Source: a virus (Duplodnaviria > Heunggongvirae > Uroviricota > Caudoviricetes). From it: a stretch of DNA of 31,480 bases. Every line of letters starts with the position of its first letter. Position 1 is the first letter of the stretch. The stretch lies in the IMG/VR virus record IMGVR_UViG_2531839484_000009. One strand, written 5' to 3'. Position numbers and translations under genes: made by a program. Shown piece by piece: positions 1 through 17,615 of this stretch. Under the pieces are notes generated by a model, which saw only the letters and a list, made by a program, of their open reading frames with translations, was not told the origin of the DNA and did no database searches.

Positions 1-216
1 GGCGGCGGCACAGTTGGTGTGGCGGCCTCAGTCCGGAACAATTTGAAAACAAGAACCTCGCTTAGGCCTGTGTCCATATTACGTGGGTAGGATCACGCAG
101 GGGTCGGCCCATTTGAGCTTCAGATAGGAACGTTTGAATTCCTTTCACAAAATACATCACATACTGAACGTGAACATTCCCACTTTGATCTTAAGGCCAA
201 AAAGTATGCAGGACTA

Positions 217-1935
217 ATGATTTTTAGGGATAGCTTGAGAGTATTACCTTATGGTCGAGTAGATAATGATTTCTTCCAGATAGAAGAAAGACGTTCATGG
301 AATGCAGGGCGATATTATTGGTCTAATAGAAGGATTTTTGGTTATATTGGAATTACTCAATCCAGTAATAAAGAGCTGAAAGATAAGTCGGGGAGAGAGG
401 GATTCATAAGAAACCAGGCTGCAAGAGAACTGAAAACTATTATATCTAATTTGTTAACTGAACTTGCTGATAGATTTTTTGGTTCACGTTCTGATGACCG
501 TAAAGAGCTTTTAGAACAAGTTAAGCGTGAAAAAGAGTTAAGAAAATCTGCTCAACAACAAGCTCGAAAATCAACACAAAAAAGTTTTTCAGAAGCTTTG
601 AAGAATCAGACACCAGTTCTTGATGCTTCCTTGGAGGCTGTTAAAAGGCTGAAAACTAAGCTTGATAAAACTGATGGTTCGTTAGATTTAAACTATCTTA
701 AAATTATAGACAGTGATCTTACAAACTTAGATGCGTTGCGCAGTGAAATTAAAACGCCTATCAAACCTCCAAAACTTGGAATGTATGAAGAGAAATATAG
801 AGACTACAGAGATAAATTTAATGAGTTCTCTGCGTATATTCTACAAATGAAGTTAGCAATTAATAAACTTGATTCTGAATTAAATAAACTTGAGCCTTCA
901 TTGTCAGCGAAAAATCACCTTGAAAAAAATCAAGGTATTATTAATTCTAAACTAACTAAGTTTAATAACACGATAGAGGAGAAGATACATTCTCTTTTAA
1001 AAAAATGGGCCGATGAAATAAAGGTTGATCGAAGTGATTATTATGCTAAAACTATATCAGTTGTTGATTCAATAGATAATGATTCACAAATTGAAAATGT
1101 GTTTAATTTGCTCGATAGTTTATATGTTGAGTCAGTTGATACCCTAACTTTCAAATATCAATCAATAATAAAAGGTCTCGATAGATTATTTGAAGGTATA
1201 AACTTAGATTCAGCATTCTCATTATCTGAAGAAGAACGCTCATATTTTGAAGAAAAAGCTAAAAGTTTAAACGCGCTTGCACAGTTAGGTATTAGTGTTG
1301 AGATAATATCTCATGAACTTGAAGAAATGGATTCTATGGTAACCAGAGGACTAAACTCTCTTCCTACTTCTGTAAAAGAACACCCTGGTTTTTCATTGGC
1401 GTTAAATGCTCACAGATCGCTTACTCAACAAATACGTTTCTTATCACCTTTGAAAATATCAGGTTATCAATCCAGGCAGAGAATAACTGGAAAAAATATC
1501 ATGGATTATGTCCTGAAGTTCTTTGGGGAGCGTTTCGAACGGCAACGAATAACTATTGAATTTAGTGAAGAGTTTAAGCAAATCGCAATAACAGATATAC
1601 CATCAAGGATCTATCCTGTTTTTACTAATATTATCAACAATGCAATGTATTGGGTCAGTCTGTCAAATAATAGGCTCATAAAGATTGGTTTTGTGAATTC
1701 TTTGGTTATCATAGCAAATTCTGGTCCGGCAATTGATACCGATGATATCCCGCGACTATTTGAACTATTTTATAGCAAAAGAGCAAATGGACATGGGGTA
1801 GGTCTGTATCTATGTCGAGAAAACCTTGCTGTTGCACATCATAAAATATGGTATTCAGAACCTGATGAAGGCGATAACTATTTAATAAAAGATGGCGCTA
1901 ATTTTGTGATCCAGTTCAATGGAGTGGAGTTCTAA
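217..1935 (+). CDS. Histidine-kinase-like protein: coiled-coil N-terminal region, HisKA-like H-box, C-terminal GHKL ATPase (HATPase_c)
   Basis: H-box-like IISHELEE; N-box NIINNAMYW; G1-like IDTDD; G2-like GHGVGLYL. No hydrophobic TM segment seen. No in-frame start between the stop at 88-90 and ATG 217. Confidence 0.55.
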   Translation: MIFRDSLRVLPYGRVDNDFFQIEERRSWNAGRYYWSNRRIFGYIGITQSSNKELKDKSGREGFIRNQAARELKTIISNLLTELADRFFGSRSDDRKELLEQVKREKELRKSAQQQARKSTQKSFSEALKNQTPVLDASLEAVKRLKTKLDKTDGSLDLNYLKIIDSDLTNLDALRSEIKTPIKPPKLGMYEEKYRDYRDKFNEFSAYILQMKLAINKLDSELNKLEPSLSAKNHLEKNQGIINSKLTKFNNTIEEKIHSLLKKWADEIKVDRSDYYAKTISVVDSIDNDSQIENVFNLLDSLYVESVDTLTFKYQSIIKGLDRLFEGINLDSAFSLSEEERSYFEEKAKSLNALAQLGISVEIISHELEEMDSMVTRGLNSLPTSVKEHPGFSLALNAHRSLTQQIRFLSPLKISGYQSRQRITGKNIMDYVLKFFGERFERQRITIEFSEEFKQIAITDIPSRIYPVFTNIINNAMYWVSLSNNRLIKIGFVNSLVIIANSGPAIDTDDIPRLFELFYSKRANGHGVGLYLCRENLAVAHHKIWYSEPDEGDNYLIKDGANFVIQFNGVEF

Positions 1936-1936
1936 T

Positions 1937-3685
1937 ATGACAGTGGCAAATTATAATTCTCTTGTCCAGAAAACTTTCTGCGAAAATGCAATTCGTTCCG
2001 TTGTCATGATTGATGACGATTTTCTGACGTATTCTGAATCAATCAGGGCGTTGAATAACGAAGTTGATTTAGACTACAACAAAATTGACTCATCTAAACG
2101 AGCCGCTACTCTTGAGAGCTTTTTTCAATCTAAAAATATGATTTGTGATGTTGACAATGGTTCTGTTAATTTCGATGTGGATCGGATTAGAAAATCAGAT
2201 CTTATTATTGTAGATTATCATCTTGATAATAATGCACCTGATAAAACACTTAAACCATTACAAGATTTGAAAGACTCCGATCATTTAAATATGATTGTAA
2301 TATATACTAGAGAGAATTTAGAAACGGTTTGGATGCAGATATCATCGACTCTCAAAGGTGCTCTGGATATCAACAGCTTGATCATTGACTACGATAATGA
2401 AGATGTCCAAAGTTATTGGGAAGACGTTGTATTACCGAACTTAAATGATAATGGTAATAAAGCTCTCACAAGAGATGAAACAATAGCCTATATTAAAGAC
2501 AGTAAGCCTTGTAGAAGAATTAAAAGATTAATACATGATGATGCTGTGTTGGAGGATCAAAAGGATAAAAACTTCATTGCAAAAATGATTGCAGAATATG
2601 CTGTGTCTAGAAATGCAATTATTTCTAGCAACACATCTGGCAATGTCATTCGGGGTGATGAAAGCGGAGTAAAATGGATTCAATGTGGTAATATCTTTGT
2701 CTCCCTATTTCATAAGGTTCAAGATGATCATGAAAACGATGGAGATAGGATTTGGCAAACTCTCAATGATTCTCTCATTGAATGGAAACCATCTTATTAT
2801 CAGTTAATAAAATCTGAAATTCAGAATGCAATCGAAGCTGAGGCTTTATCTTTTGTAAATCATTTGGCTAACGATCATTACGGTCAAGCTGCGTGGTTAA
2901 ATGAGATATTAAAATCAGACTCGCCTGATATTAGATGTAGAAATATTGACTTTGTATTTGGTAATTTATCAGAAGAGCTTTATCAAAGACTTAAAAATAA
3001 TAATACGCTGGATGAATTTATCAAAAGTGTTTTTGATAGCTATTCAAATGAATACGCTAACAGCGGAGTTGCTGCATTGCTCCAATATTGCTCTTCAAAA
3101 ATGGATCTGCCATCAAATAATGATACTTATCACGAAATGTATCATGCTTTAAATATGAATTTGTCTTCAAAGAATTTTGAAGATGGTCATATTTCTACTG
3201 GCACTATTTTCTTTGATACAGAGTCGAACAAATGGTATTTATGTGTATCTGCGGCATGTGATTTGGTTCCTACTCAGGGTAACGACCCTCACCATGTAAG
3301 ATTAAGTCCGCACAGGCTCATTAAAGTTCTGGAGCTTTTTAACGCCAGTCAGAGTAAAGCATTGCCATTTGCTGAACATTCGAAATATATATATGTAATG
3401 CATAAAAATCAAAGAAAATATCTCTCTATTTTCGAAGGGGATAAAACGCTTCCTGTTGTTGATTATATGGTGGTGTTGAATCATGGAACAACAGTTGATG
3501 GCGAAGAAAAAAATATTATTTCTGCCGTGTTTTTAAGTAATATGGATGGCAACGTGCAAAATGTTCCTGTCCGACTCAAACTTAAATCTCAACTGAGAAC
3601 TGGTTATGCAGAAAGATATCAGGCTATAGCGTCTCAGTATAGCTCAAGGATTGGTGTGGATTATGTATCAATGATGCTACCATAA
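1937..3685 (+). CDS. Receiver (REC)-like domain protein with ~450-aa uncharacterised C-terminal domain
   Basis: N-terminal motifs VVMIDDD, DLIIVDYHL and MIVIYT fit the REC beta1/beta3/beta4 pattern. ATG 1937 is preferred over ATG 1919 because GGAGTGGAG sits 7 nt upstream; it lies 1 nt after the kinase stop. No HTH output domain recognised. Confidence 0.5.
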   Translation: MTVANYNSLVQKTFCENAIRSVVMIDDDFLTYSESIRALNNEVDLDYNKIDSSKRAATLESFFQSKNMICDVDNGSVNFDVDRIRKSDLIIVDYHLDNNAPDKTLKPLQDLKDSDHLNMIVIYTRENLETVWMQISSTLKGALDINSLIIDYDNEDVQSYWEDVVLPNLNDNGNKALTRDETIAYIKDSKPCRRIKRLIHDDAVLEDQKDKNFIAKMIAEYAVSRNAIISSNTSGNVIRGDESGVKWIQCGNIFVSLFHKVQDDHENDGDRIWQTLNDSLIEWKPSYYQLIKSEIQNAIEAEALSFVNHLANDHYGQAAWLNEILKSDSPDIRCRNIDFVFGNLSEELYQRLKNNNTLDEFIKSVFDSYSNEYANSGVAALLQYCSSKMDLPSNNDTYHEMYHALNMNLSSKNFEDGHISTGTIFFDTESNKWYLCVSAACDLVPTQGNDPHHVRLSPHRLIKVLELFNASQSKALPFAEHSKYIYVMHKNQRKYLSIFEGDKTLPVVDYMVVLNHGTTVDGEEKNIISAVFLSNMDGNVQNVPVRLKLKSQLRTGYAERYQAIASQYSSRIGVDYVSMMLP

Positions 3686-3756
3686 TTATTATATTTTAGG
3701 CGTGGTGATTTTTTTTCGCCATGCCTATTTTATATTTATCATCACAATGATGTTGT

Positions 3757-4173
3757 TTATTTTTGTTTAAGTCTTCTAAGCTTCATGCATTCTAATGAGA
3801 ATAATAATAGAGTTGTGCTGTATATAAAGCCAGAGTTAGTTAATAACTTTAAATTTAATGCTTCAGGATTTTCACTGAGAAAGTGAAAGGCATAAACTAA
3901 GTATACAGCTAAAGTAGCCGTTCCAATTGTTGGTCCAATATCGCCTTGATCATGAGGTTCAAGGTTTACATTGAACTTGAAGATTAGCCATTCAAATCCC
4001 CAAGTAAAAAAAACAACTAATATCATGGCTGCGAATAATTTCGCGATGTTATCTGCTGATGGATTCATCAGAACAGATTGTTTCTGAAAAAATTCACAAA
4101 GTGAGAGTCCGAAAAAAATAAAAAAAAGTGGTCTGGAACTAAATTTTTCAAAAACTTTGAATAGGGTTTCCAT
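3757..4173 (-). CDS. Small integral membrane protein (several hydrophobic helices), function unknown
   Basis: 138-aa ORF with hydrophobic stretches LFFIFFGLSL, AAMILVVFFTW, ATLAVYLVYAF, LLLFSL; AT-rich; convergent with the kinase/receiver pair. Confidence 0.4.
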   Translation of the reverse strand: METLFKVFEKFSSRPLFFIFFGLSLCEFFQKQSVLMNPSADNIAKLFAAMILVVFFTWGFEWLIFKFNVNLEPHDQGDIGPTIGTATLAVYLVYAFHFLSENPEALNLKLLTNSGFIYSTTLLLFSLECMKLRRLKQK

Positions 4174-4211
4174 TTTCTTTACCTTCAGGATTATATTAGC
4201 TATTCTGATAC

Positions 4212-5441
4212 TTAGGCTACCAGAGCATTTGATCTTTGAGCTTGAACGTAATCACTCCACCATTGCATCAAACTCTGTCGCTCTATCAGATATTCTGCAC
4301 GATTGTATGCTGCGATAATTTCATCTTTTTTCGAGTGGGCAAGCGCTGCCTCAAGAACTTCAGCTCTGAATTTACCAGACTCCTCTGCCGCTGTTCGTGC
4401 AATAGAACGCATACCGTGAGCTACAAGCTCGCCTCCGAACCCCATTCGGATGATAGCTGCGTTGGCTGTTTGTTCATGCATATGATTAAGAGGCGCTTTT
4501 ATGCTGGGGAAAACCCATTCTCTATGCCCACTTATTGATTTCATTAATTCAAGGATGCGCAAAGCTTCTTTACTCAAAGGAACTTTGTGAAGCTTTTTCA
4601 TTTTCATGAAATCAGCAGGAATGTTCCAAATGCTGTTGGTTGTATCAATATCAGACCACCTTGCGCGAACGGCTTCACCCGGACGAACCCATGTCAACAA
4701 TTGCCATTCAATTAGCATACGTGTTTCCAACCGGATTGACGCATTCGTCAAAGATTCCATAAACCTTGGCAATTCGCTTGGGGGAAGGGCAGGCATATTT
4801 TGCTTTTTTGGTTTACTGAATCTTTGACCAAGGTTGTCAGCCGGGTTGAACTCAATAAGTTCTTCAGTAGCTGCCCACCGGAAGATTTCATTCAGACGTG
4901 AAATGATACGGCGTAGAGTTTCCAATACGCCTCGTTGCTCAATAGGATCAAGGTGTTGTTTTAAGAGCTTAGGTCGGATCTCATTGATAGGGACATTACC
5001 CAGACCGGGAAAGACATTTCTCTCTAAGCTGCGCCAGATGTCTGCTGCATGGTCTTGTGAGATACCTGATGTCTTTACCTTCTCATCTAACCATTTCCGC
5101 GCTACGGCTTGGAGAGTGTGCTCAGTAGCACTCTTTAATGCCTTCGCCTTATCGTTGTTATGGATTTGGGGATCAACACCATTTGCCAGAAAGGAGAGAT
5201 ATTCATCACGTAAGGCTCTGGCTCTTGCAAGGGTAAGGTGAGGATATGTCCCAAGGCTCATTTTGGTTCTTTTCTTGCTCACTGGTACTGCATACCTGAA
5301 ATACCAATTTTTCTTGCCTCCTTTCGCCAAAGGAGCGATTCGTAGAATCAGACCATCACCGTCAAACAAGTTGATTTCTTTATCGGCTGGCTTGGTGCTT
5401 TTGATTTCAGTGTCAGTGAGCTTCTTAGCGATTTTTGCCAT
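4212..5441 (-). CDS. int: Tyrosine integrase, P4-like family with N-terminal arm-binding domain
   Basis: N-terminus KLTDTEIKSTKP...LFDGDGLILRIAPLAKGGKKNWYFRY is typical of P4-type integrases; C-terminal catalytic region HGMRSIARTAA. Start ATG 5441 has GAGGG upstream; ATG 5483 is an alternative in-frame start. Confidence 0.85.
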   Translation of the reverse strand: MAKIAKKLTDTEIKSTKPADKEINLFDGDGLILRIAPLAKGGKKNWYFRYAVPVSKKRTKMSLGTYPHLTLARARALRDEYLSFLANGVDPQIHNNDKAKALKSATEHTLQAVARKWLDEKVKTSGISQDHAADIWRSLERNVFPGLGNVPINEIRPKLLKQHLDPIEQRGVLETLRRIISRLNEIFRWAATEELIEFNPADNLGQRFSKPKKQNMPALPPSELPRFMESLTNASIRLETRMLIEWQLLTWVRPGEAVRARWSDIDTTNSIWNIPADFMKMKKLHKVPLSKEALRILELMKSISGHREWVFPSIKAPLNHMHEQTANAAIIRMGFGGELVAHGMRSIARTAAEESGKFRAEVLEAALAHSKKDEIIAAYNRAEYLIERQSLMQWWSDYVQAQRSNALVA

Positions 5442-5538
5442 TTTGGGACCCTCGGTTTTTGGACCCTTCTTAGTGGGTCCCATTCAGGGTGCCATAACTC
5501 GTAGTTCTCAGCAATTCTCACTGGACGACAATAGACGT

Positions 5539-5571
5539 AAAAAAGCCCGCAGAGCTTGTGCTGTGTGGGCT
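5539..5571 (-). terminator. Imperfect hairpin plus T6 run immediately downstream of the ssrA 3' fragment (minus strand)
   Basis: Minus strand reads GCCCACACAGC-acaa-GCTCTGCGGGC followed by TTTTTT; 9 of 11 stem pairs. Confidence 0.4.
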
Positions 5572-5606
5572 TAGTAGACTTCATTGAACTTCAAACAACT
5601 AAAAAG

Positions 5607-5651
5607 TGGTGGAGCTGGCGGGAGTTGAACCCGCGTCCGAAATTCCTACAT
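5607..5651 (-). repeat. ssrA: 45-bp copy of the 3' end of tmRNA gene ssrA including the CCA end; att core / integration-site remnant
   Basis: Minus strand matches the recalled E. coli ssrA 3' terminus ...ATGTAGGAATTTCGGACGCGGGTTCAACTCCCGCCAGCTCCACCA over 45 nt, then diverges into AT-rich sequence. Confidence 0.75.
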
Positions 5652-5767
5652 ACCATTTTCACTACAGAAAAAATAATGATTTATGTTTAAAAACAATATG
5701 TTAGTGTTATGTGGTGTTTGGCAGTTTTATCTGTTTTTAAAGCTCTGCCGCCAAAATGTCGCCATCA

Positions 5768-6799
5768 TCAATCGCGTCTCAGCTGGGGTAAGCGAGACAT
5801 CTTGGCGGGTTGATAAGCTATAGTGATCAAGAACTGAGAATACTTGAACCAATTCTCTAGAATCCCTTCACCATATATCAAAATTTTATCTTCTATAGGG
5901 AAGTACAAGTTTACCACTTCATTTCTGCAAGTATCCAAGAAGGCGTAGGTTATCTCTTCTAAGGATTGCAGTGATTCGTACAGAGTGCCAAAATCATAAA
6001 ATGGTGAATAAACTTGGTATTTATTATAACTATCATTTATTACAAATGACTTTTTATAATGAAATCCACCTAAACACAACAGTTTACAAGTTTTTTCATA
6101 AATAATCATAACTCCTACAAATATTCTCATCTTTGTTGTGCAAAGTTCCTCTGTAGGATGTATTTGATTTTCACTCTCGGATAATTGCTTGAGTCTTGCG
6201 TTGATTTCTACCCAACATTTGTGTAAATCAATAACAAATTGCTCATTAATATCTAATTGTTGAGAATCATCAGGCGTAGATTGTGGGTATGCTTTTCTAT
6301 ATAGTTCTTGTGGATGTTTTATAAAATGTTGGTAGATTGCTTCAGCTTGAGCTTCCTGAACCGGGTAGTAGCTGCCTATTCTTTTTCCTTCGATTTTTTT
6401 ATATAAATCAAGATGAAATTTCATGTGGTTGTAATATAAATCTACCCTGTTTTTCCTTTCTGCCTCTGAGATCTGTTTTTCTGTTTGTTTGGTTCTGTGT
6501 AGGTTGTTTACTATTGAAACTAAAGGTACTGCAGATGCAAGGATGAGTAATGGTAATTTCGAGATATCTAAAAATCTCTCATAACCGTGACTTGTAAGAC
6601 TAAAAGAGTGTATTTTATCTATCCAGACAAAAGAACCAAAGTAAAGGCTGGTGAATAAAGGTAGGCCTATTGCAGCCCAGAACAAGGGTTGTTGGAACAA
6701 GCTTCTATGATCGAGAACATAAAGTCGATATTTTATAAATAAGAATATACAACCTAATAAAACGGATAGGTACATAAATGTGCTAATGCTTTTTTCCAT
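5768..6799 (-). CDS. Membrane-anchored hypothetical protein (N-terminal TM helices plus ~250-aa soluble domain); prophage cargo between int and att
   Basis: ATG 6799 lies 2 nt after the int stop (6802-6804) on the same strand; N-terminal hydrophobic segments YLSVLLGCIFLFI, LFWAAIGLPLFTSLYFGSFVW, LPLLILASAVPLVSIV; AT-rich relative to int. Confidence 0.5.
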   Translation of the reverse strand: MEKSISTFMYLSVLLGCIFLFIKYRLYVLDHRSLFQQPLFWAAIGLPLFTSLYFGSFVWIDKIHSFSLTSHGYERFLDISKLPLLILASAVPLVSIVNNLHRTKQTEKQISEAERKNRVDLYYNHMKFHLDLYKKIEGKRIGSYYPVQEAQAEAIYQHFIKHPQELYRKAYPQSTPDDSQQLDINEQFVIDLHKCWVEINARLKQLSESENQIHPTEELCTTKMRIFVGVMIIYEKTCKLLCLGGFHYKKSFVINDSYNKYQVYSPFYDFGTLYESLQSLEEITYAFLDTCRNEVVNLYFPIEDKILIYGEGILENWFKYSQFLITIAYQPAKMSRLPQLRRD

Positions 6800-6801
6800 T
6801 A

Positions 6802-7821
6802 TCAGTATCCCAACATAGCCAGTGGATTTTTTGTTACAGCATCTTCTAAATGATCTGGCGAAAAATGAGCATAAACCATCGTCATTTTTATATCAGAGTG
6901 ACCAAGAATATCGCGTAGTACCAATATGTTTCCGCCATTCATCATGAAGTGACTGGCGAATGTATGGCGCAACACGTGTGTGCACTGGCCTTCAGGCAGG
7001 TCTATACCGGCTCGTTTTACTGCGCGCTCAAAAGCTTTTCTGCAGGGCGTGAATAGTTTCCCTCTGTTTTTGGGGAGTTCTTCATATAGCTCCTGAGATA
7101 TCGGTACGGTTCGGTTTTTCTTGCCTTTAGTTTTGGTGTAGGTGATCCGGTATTTTGATAATTGATGGCCCTGCAGGTTTTCGGCTTCACTCCATCTCGC
7201 GCCGGTGGCCAGACATATTTTTGCAACCGTCAGCAGACTAGAGCTTTGAGAATCGGCGCAGGCATCCAGCAGACGTTTAATTTCTTCCGGGGTCAGGAAC
7301 GCCAATTCACTCTCAGCAATTTTAAATGTTGGCAGCCCAGCAAGCGGGTTGGGGGCTGACCAGTGGCCCAGCTTTTTCAGTGTACCAAAAACAGATGATA
7401 GATTGCGCTGTTCAAGGTTTACCGTGCGGGGCTTAACGGGCGACATAAACGTGCCATCTTCATTTCGTACTTCACCTTTTAACCGTGCTTCGCGGTATTT
7501 CGTAAAGTCACCGGCTGTCAGTTCTGAAGCGATGGGATCGCCTAGACCATTACAGATAATACTAAGTTTCGCCATGAGGCGCTTGGGGTCTGTGAGTGTT
7601 TGACCATACAGGGAATACCACAGCTCAATTAATTCTGATAGATGTCGCCGATCTTCCTTTTCCCCCAGCCATGGTTTTTTGTTCACTTCTTCCATTGTGA
7701 AGCTTTCAAATGCAATAGCTTCGCCTTTGGTAGCAAATTGCTTACGCACGCGCTTACCATTGCGTCCATTGGGATAGCACTCACACAACCATTTTCCGTT
7801 CGGCTGTTTTCTGATGGTCAT
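6802..7821 (-). CDS. int: Tyrosine integrase, P2/186 type
   Basis: 339 aa; C-terminal catalytic region HVLRHTFASHFMMNGGNILVLRDILGHSDIKMTMVYAHF; located downstream of the repressor gene as in P2/186. Confidence 0.9.
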   Translation of the reverse strand: MTIRKQPNGKWLCECYPNGRNGKRVRKQFATKGEAIAFESFTMEEVNKKPWLGEKEDRRHLSELIELWYSLYGQTLTDPKRLMAKLSIICNGLGDPIASELTAGDFTKYREARLKGEVRNEDGTFMSPVKPRTVNLEQRNLSSVFGTLKKLGHWSAPNPLAGLPTFKIAESELAFLTPEEIKRLLDACADSQSSSLLTVAKICLATGARWSEAENLQGHQLSKYRITYTKTKGKKNRTVPISQELYEELPKNRGKLFTPCRKAFERAVKRAGIDLPEGQCTHVLRHTFASHFMMNGGNILVLRDILGHSDIKMTMVYAHFSPDHLEDAVTKNPLAMLGY

Positions 7822-10403: not shown

Positions 10404-11257
10404 GCACCATCCTGAAATGGGCGGGAAATAAAACCGCCATTATGTCCGAACTGAAAAAGCATCTTCCTGCTGGCCCGCGACTGGTTGAACCTTTCGCGGG
10501 TTCCTGTGCAGTGATGATGGAGACGGAGTACCCCAGCTATCTTGTTGCGGATATTAATCCTGATTTAATCAACCTCTATAAAAAGGTTGCTGCTGATTGT
10601 GAATCGTTTATATCTCGCGCCAAAGCTTTATTTGAGGAAGCAAACAGGGAGGTGGCTTATTACAACATAAGGCAGGAGTTTAATTACTCAACTGAAATTA
10701 CTGATTTCATGAAAGCGGTATATTTCCTGTATCTCAATCGTCACGGTTACCGTGGTTTATGTCGCTATAACAAGAGCGGGCATTTCAACATTCCCTACGG
10801 TAATTATAAAAATCCGTATTTCCCTGAAAAAGAAATTCGCGCATTTGCAGAAAAAGCCCAGCGAGCAACGTTTATCTGCGCCAGCTTTGATGAAACGCTG
10901 GCGATGTTGAAGGCGGGGGATGTGGTGTATTGCGATCCGCCGTATGACGGTACGTTTTCCGGCTATCACACTGATGGTTTCACTGAAGATGACCAGTATC
11001 ACCTGGCATCCGTTCTTGAACATCGGTCATCAGAAGGACATCCGGTCATTGTTTCTAACAGTGACACATCCCTGATCCGTTCGTTGTATCGCAATTTCAC
11101 CCACCACTACATCAAAGCAAAACGCAGCATCGGTGTGGCAGCTGGCGAGGGTAAATCAGCAACAGAAATCATTGCTGTTTCCGGGCCGCGCTGCTGGGTG
11201 GGATTTGATTATTCGCGTGGCGTGGACAGTTCTGCCGTGTACGGAGTACGTGCATGA
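10400..11257 (+). CDS. dam: DNA adenine methyltransferase (Dam family, orphan)
   Basis: N-terminal ILKWAGNK and catalytic DPPY motif ([12 protein letters not shown]); start ATG 10400 overlaps the upstream stop. Confidence 0.9.
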
Positions 11258-13668
11258 GTCATGCCGATATGAACAACTGCTGCGGCTTTAACGAGGCTGC
11301 CGCAGCATTCTCATGGAACAGCCCGAAAAAGGCCATTAACCCTTATCTGGACCCGGCGGAAGTTGCGCCGGTTTCTGCGCTTTCAAACCTGATCACTCTG
11401 TACGCTGCCGATAACGAGCAGGAACAACTGCGCCGCGAGGCACTGAGTGATCAGGTCTGGGAGCGTTATTTCTTTAATGAATCCCGTGATCCTGTCCAGC
11501 GCGAAATGGAGCAGGATAAGCTAATTAGCCGGGCAAAGCTGGCGCATGAGCAGCAGCGTTTTAATCCGGACATGGTCATTCTGGCGGATGTCAACGCTCA
11601 GCCTTCCCATATCAGCAAGCCGCTCATGCAACGTATTAAATACTTCAGCAACCTGGGCAGGCCAAAGGCTTATTCCCGCTATTTGCGTGAGACGATTAAG
11701 CCATGCCTGGAACGACTGGAGCATGTACGCGACAGCCAGCTATCTGCATCTTTTCGTTTTATGGCAAGCCATGAAGGGCTGGACGGTCTGCTGATCCTGC
11801 CTGAAATGAGTCAGGATCAGGTGAAACGCCTGTCCACCCTTGTCGCTGCGCATATGAGCATGTGTCTTGATGCCGCTTGTGGTGATTTGTACGCCTCCGA
11901 TGATGTTAAGCCGGAAGAAATCCGCAAGACATGGGAAAAGGTGGCAGCAGAAACCCTGCGACTGGATGTCATACCGCCTGCGTTTGAGCAACTCCGCCGG
12001 AAAAGAAACCGCCGCAAACCTGTGCCCTATGAACTCATTCCGGGTTCGCTGGCGCGTATGCTGTGCGCCGACTGGTGGTATCGGAAATTATGGAAGATGC
12101 GTTGCGAATGGCGGGAAGAGCAGTTGCGTGCTGTCTGTCTGGTCAGCAAAAAAGCATCTCCCTATGTCAGCTATGAAGCCGTGATGCATAAACGTGAGCA
12201 GCGCCGTAAGTCGCTGGAGTTTTTCCGTTCTCATGAACTGGTGAACGAAGACGGCGACACGCTGGACATGGAGGATGTGGTAAACGCCAGCAGCAGCAAC
12301 CCGGCGCATCGCCGCAATGAGATGATGGCCTGCGTTAAAGGTCTGGAGCTTATCGCGGAAATGCGTGGTGACTGCGCCGTTTTCTACACCATCACCTGTC
12401 CGTCACGTTTCCATTCCACGCTAAATAACGGCAGGCCAAACCCGACCTGGACCAACGCGACAGTAAGACAAAGCAGCGATTATCTGGTCGGCATGTTTGC
12501 TGCATTTCGTAAGGCTATGCACAAAGCCGGATTGCGCTGGTATGGCGTGCGGGTGGCTGAGCCGCATCATGACGGTACAGTTCACTGGCACCTGTTGTGT
12601 TTTATGCGCAAAAAAGATCGCCGCGCCATTACTGCTTTGTTGCGTAAGTTTGCCATTCGTGAAGACCGCGAGGAGCTGGGGAATAACACGGGACCACGCT
12701 TTAAGTCTGAGTTGATTAACCCGCGCAAAGGAACGCCGACAAGCTACATCGCGAAATATATCAGCAAGAACATTGACGGGCGTGGTCTGGCTGGCGAGAT
12801 CAGCAAGGAAACGGGTAAATCTCTGCGTGATAACGCTGAATACGTGAATGCCTGGGCGTCTTTGCATCGTGTTCAGCAATTCCGCTTCTTTGGCATTCCG
12901 GGGCGTCAGGCTTACCGTGAACTGCGATTGCTGGCTGGTCAGGCGGCAAGGCAGCAGGGTGACAAAAAAGCAGGTGTGCCGGTACTGGATAACCCGCGCC
13001 TTGATGCCATTCTGGCTGCTGCTGATGCTGGTTGTTTTGCCACCTATATCATGAAGCAGGGAGGTGTACTGGTTCCCCGTAAATATCACCTCATCAGAAC
13101 TGCTTATGAAATTAACGAAGAGCCGACCGCCTATGGCGATCACGGTATTCGTATTTATGGCATCTGGTCACCCATTGCAGAGGGCAAGATCTGCACTCAT
13201 GCAGTGAAGTGGAAAATGGTTCGTAAGGCCGTTGACGTTCAGGAGGCGGCAGCCGACCAGGGCGCTTGCGCCCCTTGGACTCGTGGCAATAACTGTCCCC
13301 TTGCTGAAAATTTGAACCAACAGGAGAAAGATAAATCAGCTGATGGGGACCACAGAACGGACATTACCAGCATGGATGACAAGGAGTTGCACGATTACCT
13401 GCACAGTATGAACAAAAAAGAGCGCCGGGAACTGGCTGCAAGGGTACGCCTGGTGAAACCGAAACGGCGTAAAGACTACAAACAGCGAATTACAGACCAT
13501 CAGAGACTGCAGCTCGTCTATGAGCTGAAGTCCAGAGGATTTGATGGTAGCGAGAAAGAGGTCGATTTACTCCTTCGCGGCGGCAGTATTCCGTCAGGAG
13601 CAGGCTTGCGTATCTTCTATCGGAACCAGCGTTTGCGGGAAGATGATAAGTGGCGGAACCTGTATTAA
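11254..13668 (+). CDS. A: Replication initiation endonuclease (P2 gpA-like rolling-circle initiator)
   Basis: HUH-like VHWHLLCF and tyrosine motif [12 protein letters not shown]; 804 aa; position after dam. Confidence 0.85.
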
Positions 13669-13760
13669 TTACGCGGATTAACAATTCGTGCTCTTAATAA
13701 TACCAGGCATATCAGGCTGATGAACGTAAAAAAACGTTTTACATCAGTAAGATTATTATA

Positions 13761-13780
13761 TACTGTAAATATAAACAGTG
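13761..13780. promoter_or_regulatory. LexA (SOS) box TACTGTAAATATAAACAGTG
   Basis: CTGT-N8-ACAG with 17 of 20 matches to the recalled consensus TACTGTATATATATACAGTA; 42 bp upstream of ORF 13822. Confidence 0.6.
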
Positions 13781-13821
13781 GTTATACATACAGTATTTCT
13801 TGTGGTGTCATAGGAGGAAAG

Positions 13822-14010
13822 ATGCAGGACTATTTTTTGGAGTCTTTGAAGCTCCAGCGCATTGATTTTTTTCTTAAGCTTGTAGCGGCTAGTGAGTGTA
13901 GTGATGAAGAGAAGGGGCTGGCTCTGCAGTGGGTTTCTGAACTAACAGATGAACTCATGGCAAAAATCAGAACCCACGAATACAACCGCTCAATGGATGT
14001 CATCAGCTGA
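13822..14010 (+). CDS. Small hypothetical protein, possibly the N-terminal part of a Tum-like antirepressor
   Basis: ATG 13822 preceded by AGGAGGAAAG; immediately downstream of the LexA box. Confidence 0.35.
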   Translation: MQDYFLESLKLQRIDFFLKLVAASECSDEEKGLALQWVSELTDELMAKIRTHEYNRSMDVIS

Positions 14011-14020
14011 GGTGACTTTT

Positions 14021-14254
14021 ATGCGCATTGAAATAATGATCGATAAAGAGCAGAAGATTAGCCAGTCTACCCTGGACGCCCTTGAATCCGAGCTTTACCG
14101 CAATCTGCGCCCCCTGTATCCCAAAACGGTAATTCGCATTCGCAAAGGTAGCTCTAACAGTGTGGAACTAACCGGACTGCAACTGGACGAAGAAAGAAAA
14201 CAAGTGATGAAAATTATGCAGAAGGTGTGGGAAGACGACAGCTGGCTGCATTAA
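14021..14254 (+). CDS. DinI-like protein (DinI / 186 Tum C-terminal domain family)
   Basis: MRIEIMIDKEQ...LYRNL...VWEDDSWL resembles E. coli DinI (MRIEVTIAK...TWESADDW) as recalled; GAGGTGA upstream of ATG 14021. Confidence 0.7.
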   Translation: MRIEIMIDKEQKISQSTLDALESELYRNLRPLYPKTVIRIRKGSSNSVELTGLQLDEERKQVMKIMQKVWEDDSWLH

Positions 14255-14389
14255 GAAACGTTGCTGGCGTCTGAACTTGCTTCTGGCGTCAGCAAGGTTG
14301 AACAACCAGCCCTTGCGAGGCGTTAGCTCTGTAGTGCATGTCTATGCCGCATGAGATCGCATGATCGTTTGAGGATCGTTTTTGCTAAG

Positions 14390-14414
14390 GCCCGCCAGAA
14401 CTGGCGGGCTTTTG
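14390..14414 (+). terminator. Rho-independent terminator after the dinI-like gene
   Basis: Perfect stem GCCCGCCAG / CTGGCGGGC followed by TTTT. Confidence 0.5.
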
Positions 14415-14458
14415 CGTAGATCATGCAGGTGCATGAAAACCACTACATAAAGCGGGCA

Positions 14459-14471
14459 GGCGTGGCGGGGA
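14459..14471. other. Candidate cos (cohesive end) element, GGCGTGGCGGGGA
   Basis: 13-nt identity to the start of the 186 cohesive end as recalled (GGCGTGGCGGGGAAAGCAT); GC-rich element just before the AT-rich cargo. Confidence 0.35.
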
Positions 14472-14542
14472 TACGAGCGCGCGGAAAGCTATTAAGATTT
14501 GTCATTTCTATCTTTCTTATGTAATGTTAATAAAAGCATCTT

Positions 14543-14599
14543 AATATTGATGAAAGTAGCAATTGTTCTTAATAGTACGAAGGATTTTTCATCAATATG
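14543..14599. promoter_or_regulatory. 13-bp inverted repeat AATATTGATGAAA ... TTTCATCAATATG (12 of 13) upstream of the ATPase cassette
   Basis: Read directly; arms separated by 31 bp, ending 37 bp before ATG 14636. Confidence 0.35.
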
Positions 14600-14635
14600 A
14601 AAATTAATAAATCATGTGAAAGGAAATGAAAACGG

Positions 14636-16606
14636 ATGATAAGAAATATATATATAAAGAATTTTAAAACATTAAATATGACATCATATATCGAACTTAA
14701 AGAATGTTCATTTTTGTGTGGCGCTAACAGTAGTGGTAAAAGTTCACTTATACAAACACTTCTAATGTTAGCTCAAACTTTTTCTAATAGATATCAAGAT
14801 GATAGTATGGTTTTAAATGGGTCTTTAGCAAGACTGGGTTCATTTACAGATATCAAAAAGCACAACTCTACAGAGGAAGTTATTACTATTGGTTTCACTT
14901 TTGATGTTGATGAGGCGTATTATCTTCGTGATAATACAATAAATTCAATTAGATGTGAGTTTGTTATTGGTAGAAGAGACCGCTCTGTAGCAAAAATAGA
15001 CGAAGATTATCATCCTATAATAATTTCTGCGAAATATTTTATTAGTAAGGGGGGGAATAATAAACAACAGGATTATATACACTTCCAATGTTCAGGTGAT
15101 TATTTTTATTCTAAAGAAGTGGTATATGACGTAGTGTCATTCAACACCTCTGAATATAATGATTTGAAGAAGAGGTTTCCAAGTCTAAAGATTTTAAGTA
15201 TTGCTAAATCTGGGGATTTAATTCCTTCTTTAATAAATATTCAATATGATAAAACAAAAAAAGAAAGCTATGAAATAATTAATTTTTTAACTAGAAAGCA
15301 TAGCACACAGAGGGGGGGGTATTTTTTAGATGATGAGGATTTTGGTGATGATATTCTTATCCCTAGAGAATTCTCCGCAAGAGTTTTGGAGTTGATAAAG
15401 GAAGAACGTAATAAATTATTGGACGAGTTTGACTTGCCAAACGATCTTCTTGACATCATGACACATAGTCATATTGCTAAAGATGATTATATCTCCTATA
15501 GCTATGACAAAAATAAATTATCGCAGAGAGCTAAGGAATTATTAAACGAAATTAAAGGTAATTTCATTGAAATAAACTATTCTTTACAATCAAGTGATAT
15601 TCCTTTAATTTTTGTAAATAAAGCTGTTAGTATAGTTGATTGGAAATCTTGGTTAGATGCTTTGGATGAGAAGAAAAGGAAAAGTTTAATCGTATTGTTA
15701 GAAAAGCACAGGGACAGTCTACAAGCAATATGGTATAACAATATTGATGTTAAAATGACAAGCGACGTATATAGTTCGCACCTTTTACAAGATGTAGAAA
15801 ATGCAATGGTGTACTGTTTCTCGCGAAGCCTAAAGTACCTTGGGCCTCTACGACATGAACCTCAGGCTGTCTATTCATCGAGCCCTTATGATGCAAACAC
15901 CGTAGGTTTGAAAGGTGAATTTACCGCCTCTCTTCTTCATCGAAATCGCGCTAATTTTATATGTTACAGCTCCCCTTCTATAATTAATGGTAAAATAAAC
16001 GTTAGAGAAAAGTATGATACTCTAAACAACGCTTGTAAAGAGTGGTTGTCATTTTTAGGTGTTGTTGAGGAAGTAAGAACTACTGATAAAGGTAAATTAG
16101 GCTATGAGTTATACGTTAAAACTTCTAGCGGCGAAAAATGGCAAGATCTCACTCACGTAGGTGTTGGTGTCAGTCAAGTACTGCCTATTGTATTGATGTT
16201 CTTGAATTCAGATCCTTCAGATGTGTTAATTTTTGAACAACCGGAATTACATTTACATCCTAAAGTTCAATCTAAATTATGTGACCTTTTTCTTATAATG
16301 GCAAATACTGGTCGCCAGTGCATTATTGAAACTCACAGTGAGTATATGATCAATAGATTGAGGCTTAGAGTTGCGCAAGATTTAGACAATAATTACCTCA
16401 AAAAATCAGCGCTATATTTTATAAATAAAGTTAATGGGATATCAGAATTCCAAAATATAAATATTAACAAGTATGGTGCGATTCCTGAATGGCCTGAAGA
16501 TTTCTTTGATCAAACAGATAAGGAAGTTGAAAAGATTTTAATGGAGGCAAGCATAAAGAAAAATAAAGAAAAAGCTAAGAGGTTTACCAATGACAGCGGT
16601 TATTAA
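14636..16606 (+). CDS. ABC/OLD-type (AAA_15/AAA_21-like) ATPase with Walker A and Walker B separated by ~500 aa
   Basis: Walker A GANSSGKSS near the N-terminus; Walker-B-like VLIFEQPELHLHP and H-loop-like IIETHS near residue 530-560; strongly AT-rich. Confidence 0.7.
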   Translation: MIRNIYIKNFKTLNMTSYIELKECSFLCGANSSGKSSLIQTLLMLAQTFSNRYQDDSMVLNGSLARLGSFTDIKKHNSTEEVITIGFTFDVDEAYYLRDNTINSIRCEFVIGRRDRSVAKIDEDYHPIIISAKYFISKGGNNKQQDYIHFQCSGDYFYSKEVVYDVVSFNTSEYNDLKKRFPSLKILSIAKSGDLIPSLINIQYDKTKKESYEIINFLTRKHSTQRGGYFLDDEDFGDDILIPREFSARVLELIKEERNKLLDEFDLPNDLLDIMTHSHIAKDDYISYSYDKNKLSQRAKELLNEIKGNFIEINYSLQSSDIPLIFVNKAVSIVDWKSWLDALDEKKRKSLIVLLEKHRDSLQAIWYNNIDVKMTSDVYSSHLLQDVENAMVYCFSRSLKYLGPLRHEPQAVYSSSPYDANTVGLKGEFTASLLHRNRANFICYSSPSIINGKINVREKYDTLNNACKEWLSFLGVVEEVRTTDKGKLGYELYVKTSSGEKWQDLTHVGVGVSQVLPIVLMFLNSDPSDVLIFEQPELHLHPKVQSKLCDLFLIMANTGRQCIIETHSEYMINRLRLRVAQDLDNNYLKKSALYFINKVNGISEFQNININKYGAIPEWPEDFFDQTDKEVEKILMEASIKKNKEKAKRFTNDSGY

Positions 16607-17615
16607 ATTTGAATATTTAATATCTCCATTGATATGCACTGGTGGGCAGGTAGATGAGCATGTCAATGGTCTGCGATTATTAAAAGAATTAGTTAGTAGT
16701 TCTGACATAGACGTCAAATGCGAGGACTCCATACTCAGCAATATGCAAGAGGCTGGTTATTATCCATGTGCTAAAATATTGAGTAGGGCATTCCCTGGTG
16801 GTGAAGATTGCGTTCATAGCGCTCAAGATGTTTCAAAAATAATAAATAATATAATTAGCCATTTCGAAGAGTGCAATCCTGAAGTTACTTCTCATGAAAT
16901 CGAGTGGGACTCGTTTACGGTTGTGCCGCCTATAGAAACAATATCAGATGAGAGAAAAAATAATGTCGAAATTTTCTTGAGGAATATTCTTTCAAGAAAA
17001 TTTCTATTAAGTGAAGAGTTTTCTTTCTTTTATTCTCAAAGAAATAAGCCAATTCTTCAGTCCCAAAAGTTTTCATTAAGCGGTACAATTAGCGATATAT
17101 ACCCTGCGGATAGTGTAGCAATACCCATTGAATTAAGTAATGAAATAATTGCTCACGGTAATATTAATGATTTCATCAATAATATTGATGGGTACTCTTT
17201 ATATAAAATGGCTAGTAATATATCCGCTCTTAAATGTGCTCTCTTTTTTGGTTGTGTAAATTTTTTGAAAAATAATTATACAGGTGAAAAGTTCGAATGG
17301 GATGATTTCAAAATAGGAGCAGATTTTTTTGATTCGTTGCTAAGACATCAAGGTGCTTTTGAACAAGAGTTTTCCTCAGTAGTTTATGAAACTATAGTGC
17401 AAGTTTTATGTCGCCATCCTAAAAATGAAGTAAAACCATTTAGAGTATCTTCCAAGTCTACTGAACAAAGAACCCATGGTGATTTAAGGGCCTTTCGCAC
17501 CCATATCACTTCTAGACATCAAGCATTGAGACTAATGTTTTGGGTTGATTCCAATCAAATAATCACATTGGCAAATATTGGTCCGAAATTTGAAGAATCT
17601 ATTTCTTTGCCATGA
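16590..17615 (+). CDS. Uncharacterised partner protein of the ATPase (341 aa), putative effector
   Basis: ATG 16590 overlaps the ATPase gene by 17 nt, AGAGG 8 nt upstream; no recognisable HNH or clear TOPRIM motifs; C-terminal RAFRTH / RTHITSRH fit an Rx4-6H pattern. Confidence 0.5.
   Translation: MTAVIKFEYLISPLICTGGQVDEHVNGLRLLKELVSSSDIDVKCEDSILSNMQEAGYYPCAKILSRAFPGGEDCVHSAQDVSKIINNIISHFEECNPEVTSHEIEWDSFTVVPPIETISDERKNNVEIFLRNILSRKFLLSEEFSFFYSQRNKPILQSQKFSLSGTISDIYPADSVAIPIELSNEIIAHGNINDFINNIDGYSLYKMASNISALKCALFFGCVNFLKNNYTGEKFEWDDFKIGADFFDSLLRHQGAFEQEFSSVVYETIVQVLCRHPKNEVKPFRVSSKSTEQRTHGDLRAFRTHITSRHQALRLMFWVDSNQIITLANIGPKFEESISLP

Follow-up and report, generated by a model that had tools for sequence, protein, structure and literature searches.

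A kinase and receiver gene pair beside an ssrA fragment

We analyzed a stretch of 31,480 nucleotides from a Caudoviricetes record (IMG/VR IMGVR_UViG_2531839484_000009; hereafter the window), in which two adjacent genes occupy positions 217-3685 of the forward strand. ORF1 is annotated as a coding sequence at 217-1935 (+) for a protein of 572 aa (WP_000577254.1), and ORF2 spans 1919/1937-3685 (+; 588/582 aa). As first described, the ORF2 ATG at 1937 comes 1 nt past the ORF1 stop at 1935. The right end of an IS3 element (1-97, +) lies to the left of the pair. On the other side, a hairpin resembling an intrinsic terminator, with a 12-bp stem and a T run (3697-3727, +), lies 12 nt past the ORF2 stop and marks the operon end. 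It is followed by a gene for a predicted membrane protein of 138 aa (3757-4173, -; Kyte-Doolittle 2.06), a P4-type tyrosine integrase with Arm-DNA-bind_3, Phage_int_M and Phage_integrase domains (4212-5483, -) and a 177-nt 3' fragment of ssrA (tmRNA) that forms the attachment-site end of the island (5607-5783, -). This fragment was seen by Rfam (50.2 bits), while an ARAGORN scan for tRNAs and tmRNAs found nothing. Directly past it lies an integrated P2-like prophage. The integrase and ssrA setting given in the initial annotation is therefore the one found here, and so is the AT-richness, with a GC content of 0.32-0.36 at the locus against 0.50-0.60 in the adjacent prophage. The 138-aa membrane protein travels with this ssrA island and not with the kinase-receiver pair of other elements; a Salmonella integrative and conjugative element (ICE) has a different gene at its position.

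All the motifs from which a kinase had been proposed could be located in ORF1: IISHELEE (1303-1326), whose H-box histidine is nt 1312-1314, the N-box NIINNAMYW (1627-1653), IDTDD (1732) and the G2 box GHGVGLYL (1789-1812). The N-box and G2 box belong to a C-terminal HATPase_c domain, and the HATPase_c model that had been suggested as a check (PF02518, Pfam) indeed matches ORF1 at 2e-11 (44.7 bits). The two other suggested models, HisKA (PF00512) and Response_reg (PF00072), match neither ORF1 nor ORF2. ORF1 carries a DHp-like HEF_HK domain (PF19191; 26.2 bits, cut-off 24.1), and the His-Glu H-box, with the H of SHELEE, is conserved among its homologues. Both proteins lack a transmembrane helix, as had been stated for ORF1, the highest Kyte-Doolittle 19-residue window being 1.38 in ORF1 and 0.96 in ORF2. 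In the enterobacterial subfamily the G1 box of the C-terminal ATPase reads N-S-G-P-A and not D-x-G-x-G. Judged against GHKL ATPases in general, this casts doubt on ATP binding by the C-terminal domain, in intact copies too.

ORF2 begins with a receiver domain (Response_reg_2, PF19192; 1937-2731, +) supported by a Pfam match at E 4e-30 (105.7 bits, cut-off 27), by an AF2 model with a REC fold (pLDDT 84), by Foldseek matches to receiver domains (probability 0.97-0.99) and by residue conservation. The Response_reg_2 model matches 35 of 35 aligned homologues, and PF00072 matches 5 of the 35 weakly. The receiver motifs noticed earlier are present (VVMIDDD at nt 2000, DLIIVDYHL at 2198, MIVIYT at 2291), and the catalytic residues D26/D27, T124 and K260 and the phospho-acceptor D93 are conserved at 92-100% across 194 homologues. 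A helical insertion of ~110 aa separates beta4 from beta5.

The rest of ORF2 consists of an all-helical middle domain (aa 268-410; 2738-3166, +), with no family or fold match, and a beta-rich C-terminal domain (aa 411-582 and the stop codon; 3167-3685, +), presumed to be the output or effector. The large output region had been called unrecognized, and we agree: nothing beyond the receiver domain was matched in Pfam, NCBIfam or PADLOC. For the C-terminal region there was no match in NCBIfam, in Pfam at E up to 10 (35 homologues) or in a PDB sequence-profile search, and a Foldseek search of the PDB with its model found nothing; with the full ORF2 model, Foldseek returned receiver and flavodoxin folds alone, none at E<1e-3. 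HTH profiles matched none of 35 family members at E up to 10. The C-terminal region holds near-invariant residues (N406, G422, C436, C441-D442, P445, R560, R571, G573 and D575). Because the output domain has no recognized fold, its label of effector is an assumption. Matches of 190-340 aa that looked like stand-alone C-terminal-domain proteins sit at the ends of ~1.5-kb contigs and are best explained as fragments.

Intact relatives form a methylase-kinase-receiver operon

The pair is the broken right-hand end of a described three-gene module composed of a DNA methylase, a MORC-like histidine kinase and a receiver protein. ORF1 had been read as a complete cytoplasmic kinase but corresponds to the 3' ~62% of a 988-aa gene, with which the remnant (98-1935, +) is collinear, and its frame remains open upstream as far as nt 91. 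Homologues of 988 aa occur in Salmonella, Klebsiella and Serratia, share 99% identity over the common region and match PF13589 and PF02518. In the intact protein, an N-terminal MORC-like GHKL ATPase (HATPase_c_3) is followed by a long linker, the DHp-like HEF_HK domain and the C-terminal HATPase_c domain. The ~375 residues missing from ORF1 carry the HATPase_c_3 domain, a second GHKL ATPase, whereas the linker, HEF_HK and HATPase_c are kept. The stretch that had been taken for a long N-terminal coiled coil is, in the full-length kinase, the middle linker.

The actual unit, which the initial annotation overlooked, is an operon of three genes in the order C5 DNA cytosine methylase, soluble kinase-like protein of ~990 aa and receiver protein of ~580 aa, the latter with an atypical REC domain (Response_reg_2) followed by a helical and a conserved beta-rich C-terminal domain. 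The genes overlap or abut in the three loci L002-L004; in the intact ssrA island (L002), the methylase gene precedes and overlaps the 988-aa kinase gene. The operon recurs in a Salmonella ICE, in an Acinetobacter Tn7-like element, where a C-protein-like (XRE) HTH gene stands beside it, and in a distant metagenomic locus. A methylase was found in every intact locus examined, and that of the intact relatives is of the C5 type (TIGR00675, 1.5e-47). On the ssrA island, in the Salmonella ICE and in Acinetobacter, the operon contains no nuclease gene. As the initial annotation had observed for the window, a separate buffer receiver is absent: none was found in the window, upstream in this genome or in the intact loci examined.

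An ancestral deletion produced the E. coli locus

Window positions 95-5650 align collinearly with 11127-16681 of the intact ssrA island (98.97% identity), and the breakpoint falls 1127 nt into the intact kinase gene. In an ancestor of the ~10% of E. coli that carry the island, a deletion removed everything to the left of kinase codon ~376, and the methylase and the native upstream region were lost in the same event. It left the kinase core, the receiver gene, the terminator, the small membrane protein, the integrase and the ssrA fragment intact. The breakpoint is identical in 555 of 555 island-bearing E. coli genomes, which share the same first matching base against the intact reference, and the methylase or the kinase N-terminus is found in 0 of the 555. 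In E. coli the pair is always on the ssrA island; a search of a plasmid collection gave no match.

In most genomes the junction is now marked by an IS3 element without target duplication. From RefSeq annotation and sequence reading, its terminal inverted repeat ends ...GGTAGGATCA at nt 97, and its transposase coding sequence ends at window position 65 in the RefSeq annotation of a 99.9% identical record. The left end reads TGATCTTACCCA... (L001, position 7839) and the right end, in reverse complement, TGATCCTACCCA...; the flanking triplets differ (TCT and CGC), so there is no target-site duplication. The repeats are imperfect, so an inverted-repeat search missed the IS3 ends, and these were instead read directly from the sequence. 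The element reads in the direction of ORF1 and ORF2, and read-through from it could express the pair. We found no promoter-like site in nt 97-217, and a Shine-Dalgarno-like AGGA lies just 3 nt upstream of the ORF1 ATG.

ORF1 and ORF2 are uninterrupted in ~98% of the complete genomes carrying them. Among 560 complete genomes, 12 have ORF2 split at codon ~454 by an IS3-family element, and a truncated form of 453 aa has 1605 member sequences; such insertions are tolerated in EHEC lineages. In one Klebsiella genome the kinase gene has been split independently, and the 572-aa annotation there still has the HATPase_c_3 part upstream. The ORF1 remnant shows 3 synonymous and 5 non-synonymous differences, a count too small for a dN/dS reading. 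ORF2 differs from the intact Serratia-type copy by 12 synonymous and 2 non-synonymous changes (dN/dS 0.04), which fits continued constraint, although the counts are small and part of the divergence accrued in intact lineages. With the sensor ATPase, the methylase and the promoter absent, the E. coli remnant most likely no longer works as the intact system does. It appears to be a relic in slow decay, and IS elements already interrupt it in some lineages.

Relation to described families and defense systems

The gene pair at 217-3685 is real; the family and the locus were both already known, and the copy in the window is degraded. The region is labelled 'remnant integrative element' in GenBank (AJ304858.2), and the proteins belong to the HEF_HK/Response_reg_2 "two-component-like" family described by Bellieny-Rabelo, Pretorius & Moleleki (Genome Biol Evol 2021; PMC8011034), whose figures used an E. 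coli member. The 2021 models PF19191 and PF19192 derive from precisely this family, so the pair cannot count as a newly recognized or distinct module. In that work the two genes are linked in 91.6% of cases, the pairs are associated with restriction-modification (R-M) genes, the architecture with N-terminal HATPase_c_3 (group 1) accounts for 174 of 222 sequences, and the C-terminal part of the receiver is given no function. In the window both Pfam models score above cut-off, two neighboring genes encode soluble proteins, and the His and Asp are conserved; the intact relatives have HATPase_c_3, HEF_HK and HATPase_c with an upstream C5 methylase as described. The window copy differs by the absence of HATPase_c_3 (truncation at nt 97) and of a neighboring methylase. 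The same paper counts 'group 2' architectures as natural variants, whereas the group-2-like form seen here is a deletion product.

A related, validated system is Ambrosia (AbrR-AbrA-AbrB-AbrC-AbrD), an anti-phage system of P. aeruginosa reported in a 2025 preprint, in which mutation of the GHKL Asn or of the REC Asp abolishes phage defense (bioRxiv 10.1101/2025.09.30.679545). Like the intact family, it combines in one cluster a methylase, a dual-GHKL kinase-like protein (HATPase_c_3 ... HATPase_c) and a receiver, with an XRE/C-protein-like gene that is also found in the Acinetobacter relatives. By BLASTP, the N-terminal 399 aa of AbrB align collinearly with the full-length relative P0006 in two segments (aa 8-125, 6e-11; aa 411-479, 4e-6). 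Only the second, the kinase 'RDxxRVxPYG' region, falls in the remnant of the window. Ambrosia has its own N6-adenine methylase AbrA, a canonical 209-aa REC protein AbrC and a separate HNH nuclease AbrD, whereas in the present family the methylase is of the C5 type, the receiver is a 580-aa Response_reg_2 protein that carries large C-terminal domains itself, and a nuclease gene is missing. AbrC could not be aligned with ORF2 (E 6.8).

The initial annotation had modelled the pair on Detocs (DtcA-DtcB-DtcC), whose detection requires all three genes (Rousset et al. 2023, 10.1101/2023.01.24.525353). The two share a soluble kinase and a receiver fused to a non-DNA-binding output in an immune context, but this blueprint does not hold: there is no buffer receiver, the kinase begins with a MORC-like ATPase in place of the TPRs of Detocs, a DNA methylase is coupled to the module, and ORF2 has neither a PNP ATP nucleosidase nor another recognized Detocs effector (Pfam, NCBIfam, PADLOC). 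ORF1, ORF2 and the full-length kinase were unmatched in PADLOC at E<=0.01, which argues against the catalogued systems, including MADS, in whose preprint a histidine kinase is only a flanking gene. The N-terminal GHKL of the intact protein (PF13589) is of the type found in paraMORC GHKL ATPases of R-M systems (Iyer, Abhiman & Aravind 2008; PMC2292703) and likewise stands beside a C5 methylase; this part is absent from the window. The intact kinase matches NCBIfam restrict_BbrUII (NF050001) at 1.5e-13 over aa 13-138. It is no full-length member of this BbrUII/HgiDII family of type II restriction enzymes: the match reaches 50.2 bits against a cut-off of 550 and covers the N-terminal GHKL only; the intact protein has no C-terminal RecB-like nuclease and continues into the histidine-kinase core.

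Proposed function and alternative explanations

The association with defense that the initial annotation proposed holds up, through the R-M linkage of the family (PMC8011034), the AbrB-homologous kinase and the scoring of the E. coli proteins: DefensePredictor lists both as "predicted novel defense genes" (log-odds 12.0 for ORF2, 6.6 for the ORF1 remnant). The literature that we searched contains no experiment on the family, for which we infer a defense role and phosphotransfer, the intact three-gene system being a putative R-M-coupled phosphorelay. In such a system, the methylase would mark self DNA, while the MORC-like ATPase end of the kinase would monitor DNA or the state of infection and control autophosphorylation at the H-box histidine. 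The phosphate would then move to D93 of the receiver, and the phosphorylated receiver would turn on its C-terminal domain as output. We consider it likely that the intact operon has this role and that window 98-3685, which preserves its 3' part, is now a relic.

A working, self-contained two-component module, in which the truncated kinase core phosphorylates ORF2 without need of the methylase and the ORF2 C-terminal domain acts as an abortive-infection effector, would account for both ORFs being intact in most of ~550 genomes, for the low dN/dS of ORF2 and for the DefensePredictor calls. IS3 transcription is directed towards ORF1, and 34 of 222 family sequences have HEF_HK and HATPase_c without HATPase_c_3 (PMC8011034). 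We nevertheless judge it unlikely. The 572-aa form is demonstrably a deletion product here, and its Klebsiella equivalent is a split gene with the HATPase_c_3 part upstream; nt 97-217 yielded no promoter-like site, the AGGA is just 3 nt from the ATG, and EHEC lineages tolerate IS insertions in ORF2. In the related Ambrosia, moreover, the N-terminal GHKL Asn is essential (N40A). It is similarly improbable that the C-terminal ~300 aa of ORF2 are an unrecognized effector fold of methylase-coupled phosphorelay immunity and that the E. coli remnant is still active alone, for example as a methylase-independent abortive-infection module driven by IS3 read-through.

The intact receiver could instead be a regulator, its helical and C-terminal domains binding DNA or partners and switching on neighboring R-M genes, much as transcriptional control by the REC-wHTH protein AbrC is proposed for Ambrosia; nuclease genes (HNH_2, Vsr and others) often adjoin the receiver gene in other family members (PMC8011034). 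This seems to us a rather doubtful reading. The ssrA-island, Salmonella ICE and Acinetobacter operons have no nuclease gene, so a pure regulator would leave nothing to carry out restriction. No HTH profile matches the 35 members at E up to 10, AbrC (209 aa) has no similarity to ORF2, and the near-invariant polar and Cys residues of the C-terminal domain are more suggestive of an active or ligand site than of a helix that reads DNA. An ordinary chromosomal signaling system with a standard output, to which only the generic HATPase_c and receiver-like signatures point, is highly improbable and is ruled out by distribution and genomic context: only ~10% of E. coli have the pair, in each case on the ssrA island, its GC is low, relatives sit on ICEs and Tn7-like elements, and it shows no HisKA or Response_reg match (ORF1/ORF2) and no DNA-binding output.

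Discussion

The locus is a known relic, neither a new nor a complete defense system. The initial view of a soluble kinase-like and receiver-like pair on an ssrA island stands, while that of a complete, distinct module does not; it overlooked that the deletion had left no methylase, native promoter region or kinase N-terminal ATPase. For the window itself this matters little. It does correct an annotation: WP_000577254.1, the 572-aa 'ATP-binding protein' of thousands of E. coli records, has been counted as a natural architecture but arose by deletion. The 'novel defense genes' predicted here by machine are what is left of a larger system. Ambrosia shows that such a kinase is needed for phage defense, and the three-gene operon of Serratia, Klebsiella and Salmonella (99% identity) is therefore a better test construct than the remnant found in E. 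coli. The intact family is of greater importance: in it, DNA methylation, a MORC-type ATPase and His-Asp phosphotransfer would be tied to an output domain whose fold is unrecognized.

The ORF1/ORF2 pair lies on a P4-type island at ssrA

The window is E. coli chromosome and, over nt 1-6000, 99.9% identical to NZ_AP022036.1. Comparison with that genome gives the order gabP-gabT-gabD-lhgO-glaH, a 5'-truncated amylase-like pseudogene, IS3, ORF1 ('ATP-binding protein', 217-1935), ORF2 ('response regulator receiver domain', 1937-3685), a gene for a 138-aa hypothetical protein, an integrase of the P4 type according to Pfam, an ssrA fragment and then the P2-like prophage. The reading frames and motifs described in the initial annotation were all present, and the pair is AT-rich as stated there, with a GC content of 0.32-0.36 vs 0.50-0.60 in the prophage. 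The ssrA fragment is a 177-nt 3' piece of the tmRNA gene (5607-5783, minus strand), with an IsrM-like terminator match beyond it at 5539-5616 (minus strand). As no more of ssrA than this piece is present, the P2-like prophage and the P4-integrase island are tandem integrations at ssrA, and the complete tmRNA gene has to lie to the right of the window.

The prophage brings cargo of its own. Between its replication gene (11254-13668) and its portal gene, a low-GC segment (0.30-0.35; 14636-17615) encodes a 656-aa OLD/AriA/NsnB-like ABC-type ATPase (PADLOC NsnB 4e-78, HEC-03B 3e-58; Pfam AAA_15, AAA_21, DUF3696) and, overlapping it, a 341-aa ORF with no match in Pfam, PADLOC or NCBIfam and a single match to a PHROG with no assigned function (phrog_25609). 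This looks like a two-gene defense cassette in the P2 'tin/old' hotspot. A DinI-like gene (13949-14254; Pfam DinI 2e-22) is found just upstream. A 343-aa ORF (5768-6799, minus strand), flanked by the ssrA fragment and the P2-type integrase, likewise matched only a PHROG with no assigned function (phrog_17460) and nothing in Pfam, PADLOC or NCBIfam. At exactly this position, other E. coli strains (L014-L016) have other hypothetical genes, 930-1206 nt long, which suggests a variable cargo slot next to the P2 integrase.

ORF1 is the truncated end of a longer gene

The ORF1 reading frame stays open 5' of its first ATG, back to nt 91, and the right end of IS3 occupies nt 1-97. A protein search recovered homologues of 988-994 aa in Salmonella, Klebsiella and Serratia, 99% identical over the common part and carrying an additional N-terminal HATPase_c_3 domain (PF13589). 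A contig with one of these homologues, L002, holds the intact form of the same ssrA island, and its 11127-16681 aligns with window 95-5650 at 98.97% identity; the start of this alignment places the breakpoint 1127 nt into the 988-aa gene. In L002, a C5 DNA methylase gene (TIGR00675 1.5e-47; PADLOC MTase_II 7e-80) overlaps the 5' end of the 988-aa gene, with relaxase and integrase genes farther left; the three-gene operon spans L002 8812-14717.

Among the E. coli complete genomes that match this intact reference, the match starts at the identical base in 555 out of 555, and the methylase and the first ~375 codons are absent from all 555. IS3 truncates genes on both flanks, the amylase-like pseudogene and the kinase-like gene (window 1-97; comparison locus L001 7839-9097), and its flanking triplets differ (TCT and CGC). 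Because there is no 3-bp target duplication and the amylase-like gene is also truncated, the junction bears the marks of a deletion rather than a simple insertion. The EHEC-type strains 1639/77 and O103 WL1467 share the identical breakpoint, with a junction devoid of IS3. The initial observation is real but incomplete, and the copy in the window is a deletion remnant.

The operon recurs in other settings

The intact operon encodes, in abutting or overlapping genes, a methylase, a HATPase_c_3/HEF_HK/HATPase_c protein and a Response_reg_2 protein. Besides the ssrA island, it recurs in four settings: a Salmonella ICE; an Acinetobacter Tn7-like element, whose convergent methylase is partnered by a small HTH gene resembling a restriction-modification controller protein; a distant metagenomic locus with the kinase split into two; and Klebsiella pneumoniae CP141543.1 (L017 4734-7719). 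In this last genome, the kinase-like gene is broken into a 314-aa HATPase_c_3 ORF and a 572-aa ORF that begins at the same internal methionine as E. coli ORF1. The gene was broken there independently, and the numerous 572-aa 'ATP-binding proteins' in the annotations of other genera therefore probably reflect disrupted genes too.

The pair belongs to the family on which the Pfam models PF19191 and PF19192 are based. Its two genes are linked in 91.6% of cases across 644 regions, restriction-modification genes, C5 methylases above all, are enriched nearby, and the family is akin to paraMORC ATPases (Bellieny-Rabelo et al., 2021; PMC8011034).

Conserved features of the kinase-like and receiver proteins

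HATPase_c, a profile expected from the initial annotation, matched ORF1 (2e-11); the other domain matches of the pair were to HEF_HK (PF19191) in ORF1, at 26.2 bits vs a cut-off of 24.1, and Response_reg_2 (PF19192) at residues 19-175 of ORF2 (4e-30). The H-box (SHELEE; H782 in the intact protein), N-box (NNAMYW) and G2 box (GHGVGLYL) of the kinase-like protein are all conserved. The G1 ATP-binding box of its C-terminal HATPase_c domain (window 1720-1740, ORF1 aa ~501-507) reads N-S-G-P-A in the enterobacterial subfamily, intact copies included, and canonical D-T-G-R-G in a distant family member (L011 5383-6366); ATP binding by this domain may be altered or lost in the subfamily. The N-terminal part missing from ORF1 carries a complete GHKL signature in the intact protein (E..N..DA, DNGCGM, GEKGIGRLS), which includes N36.

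In an alignment of 194 ORF2 homologues, with identity down to ~23%, D26 (98%), D27 (92%), D93 (99%), T124 (99%) and K260 (100%) form what is, by residue conservation, a full receiver constellation. The AlphaFold model of ORF2 (pLDDT 84, pTM 0.77) has three parts: a REC fold with a ~110-aa helical insertion ahead of beta5, a helical domain (aa 268-410) and a beta-rich domain (aa 411-565). Foldseek retrieved receiver domains with probabilities of 0.97-0.99 but E-values of just 0.02-0.2. The ~400 residues outside Response_reg_2 have no Pfam match, and the C-terminal domain matched nothing in Pfam, NCBIfam, PADLOC, PDB sequences or Foldseek-PDB. This domain has near-invariant residues (N406, G422, C436, C441-D442, P445, R560, R571, G573 and D575), and the model has low confidence only in the C441-P445 loop. 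At 50% identity, 219 clusters contain the domain, nearly always at the end of receiver proteins of ~580-640 aa; short matches were rejected as a stand-alone architecture, being best read as fragments at contig ends.

The family shares kinase and logic with Ambrosia but is not Detocs

Detocs requires DtcA, the stand-alone receiver DtcB and DtcC. No stand-alone receiver is found at the window locus, as initially noted, or in the intact loci, and both kinase architecture and effector differ from those of Detocs, so membership was rejected. Ambrosia, a validated P. aeruginosa defense system (2025 preprint), comprises five proteins, an XRE regulator, an N6 methylase, the dual-GHKL AbrB, the short REC protein AbrC and the HNH protein AbrD, and loses defense upon mutation of any single predicted functional domain. 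Two collinear segments of the published N-terminal sequence of AbrB (6e-11 and 4e-6) show homology to a full-length ORF1 relative, and AbrC has no similarity to ORF2. The family therefore shares the kinase and the methylase-plus-phosphorelay logic of Ambrosia but not its receiver, and it further differs by its methylase class and the lack of a separate nuclease. Both genes also figure among the 'predicted novel defense genes' of an ECOR strain in DefensePredictor (PMC13092281, supplementary table 4), with log-odds of 12.0 for an ORF2 allele (WP_000214990.1) and 6.6 for the ORF1 remnant (WP_000577254.1).

Loss of its original function is the more likely fate of the remnant

The remnant has lost the methylase, the N-terminal ATPase and the upstream region, and no promoter-like site was found between IS3 and the ORF1 ATG. 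In some genomes of EHEC lineage, 12 of 560 complete genomes, an IS3-family element splits ORF2 at codon ~454 (window ~3298; L019 3532-4843). A 453-aa form of ORF2 is abundant among database sequences, and this interruption accounts for that 'partial' cluster and for a separate 129-aa PHROG (phrog_30547). Together, these features make it more likely that the original function has been lost. Residual activity, the less likely reading, would fit the fact that ORF1 and ORF2 are both uninterrupted in most carriers, and that ORF2 and the intact copy are separated by 12 synonymous and 2 non-synonymous changes (dN/dS 0.04); the 3 synonymous and 5 non-synonymous changes in ORF1 are too few to interpret. 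The orientation of IS3 could also allow read-through into the pair.

The description of a defense-associated, two-component-like pair with an output of no recognized family was right in spirit. Neither its completeness nor its novelty held; the family was already in the literature and databases and so was the locus: GenBank AJ304858.2 (strain 1639/77) labels nt 2738-7547 a 'remnant integrative element' encoding a 'histidin kinase-like protein'. The interest remains in what the receiver C-terminal domain does and in how the intact three-gene system works.
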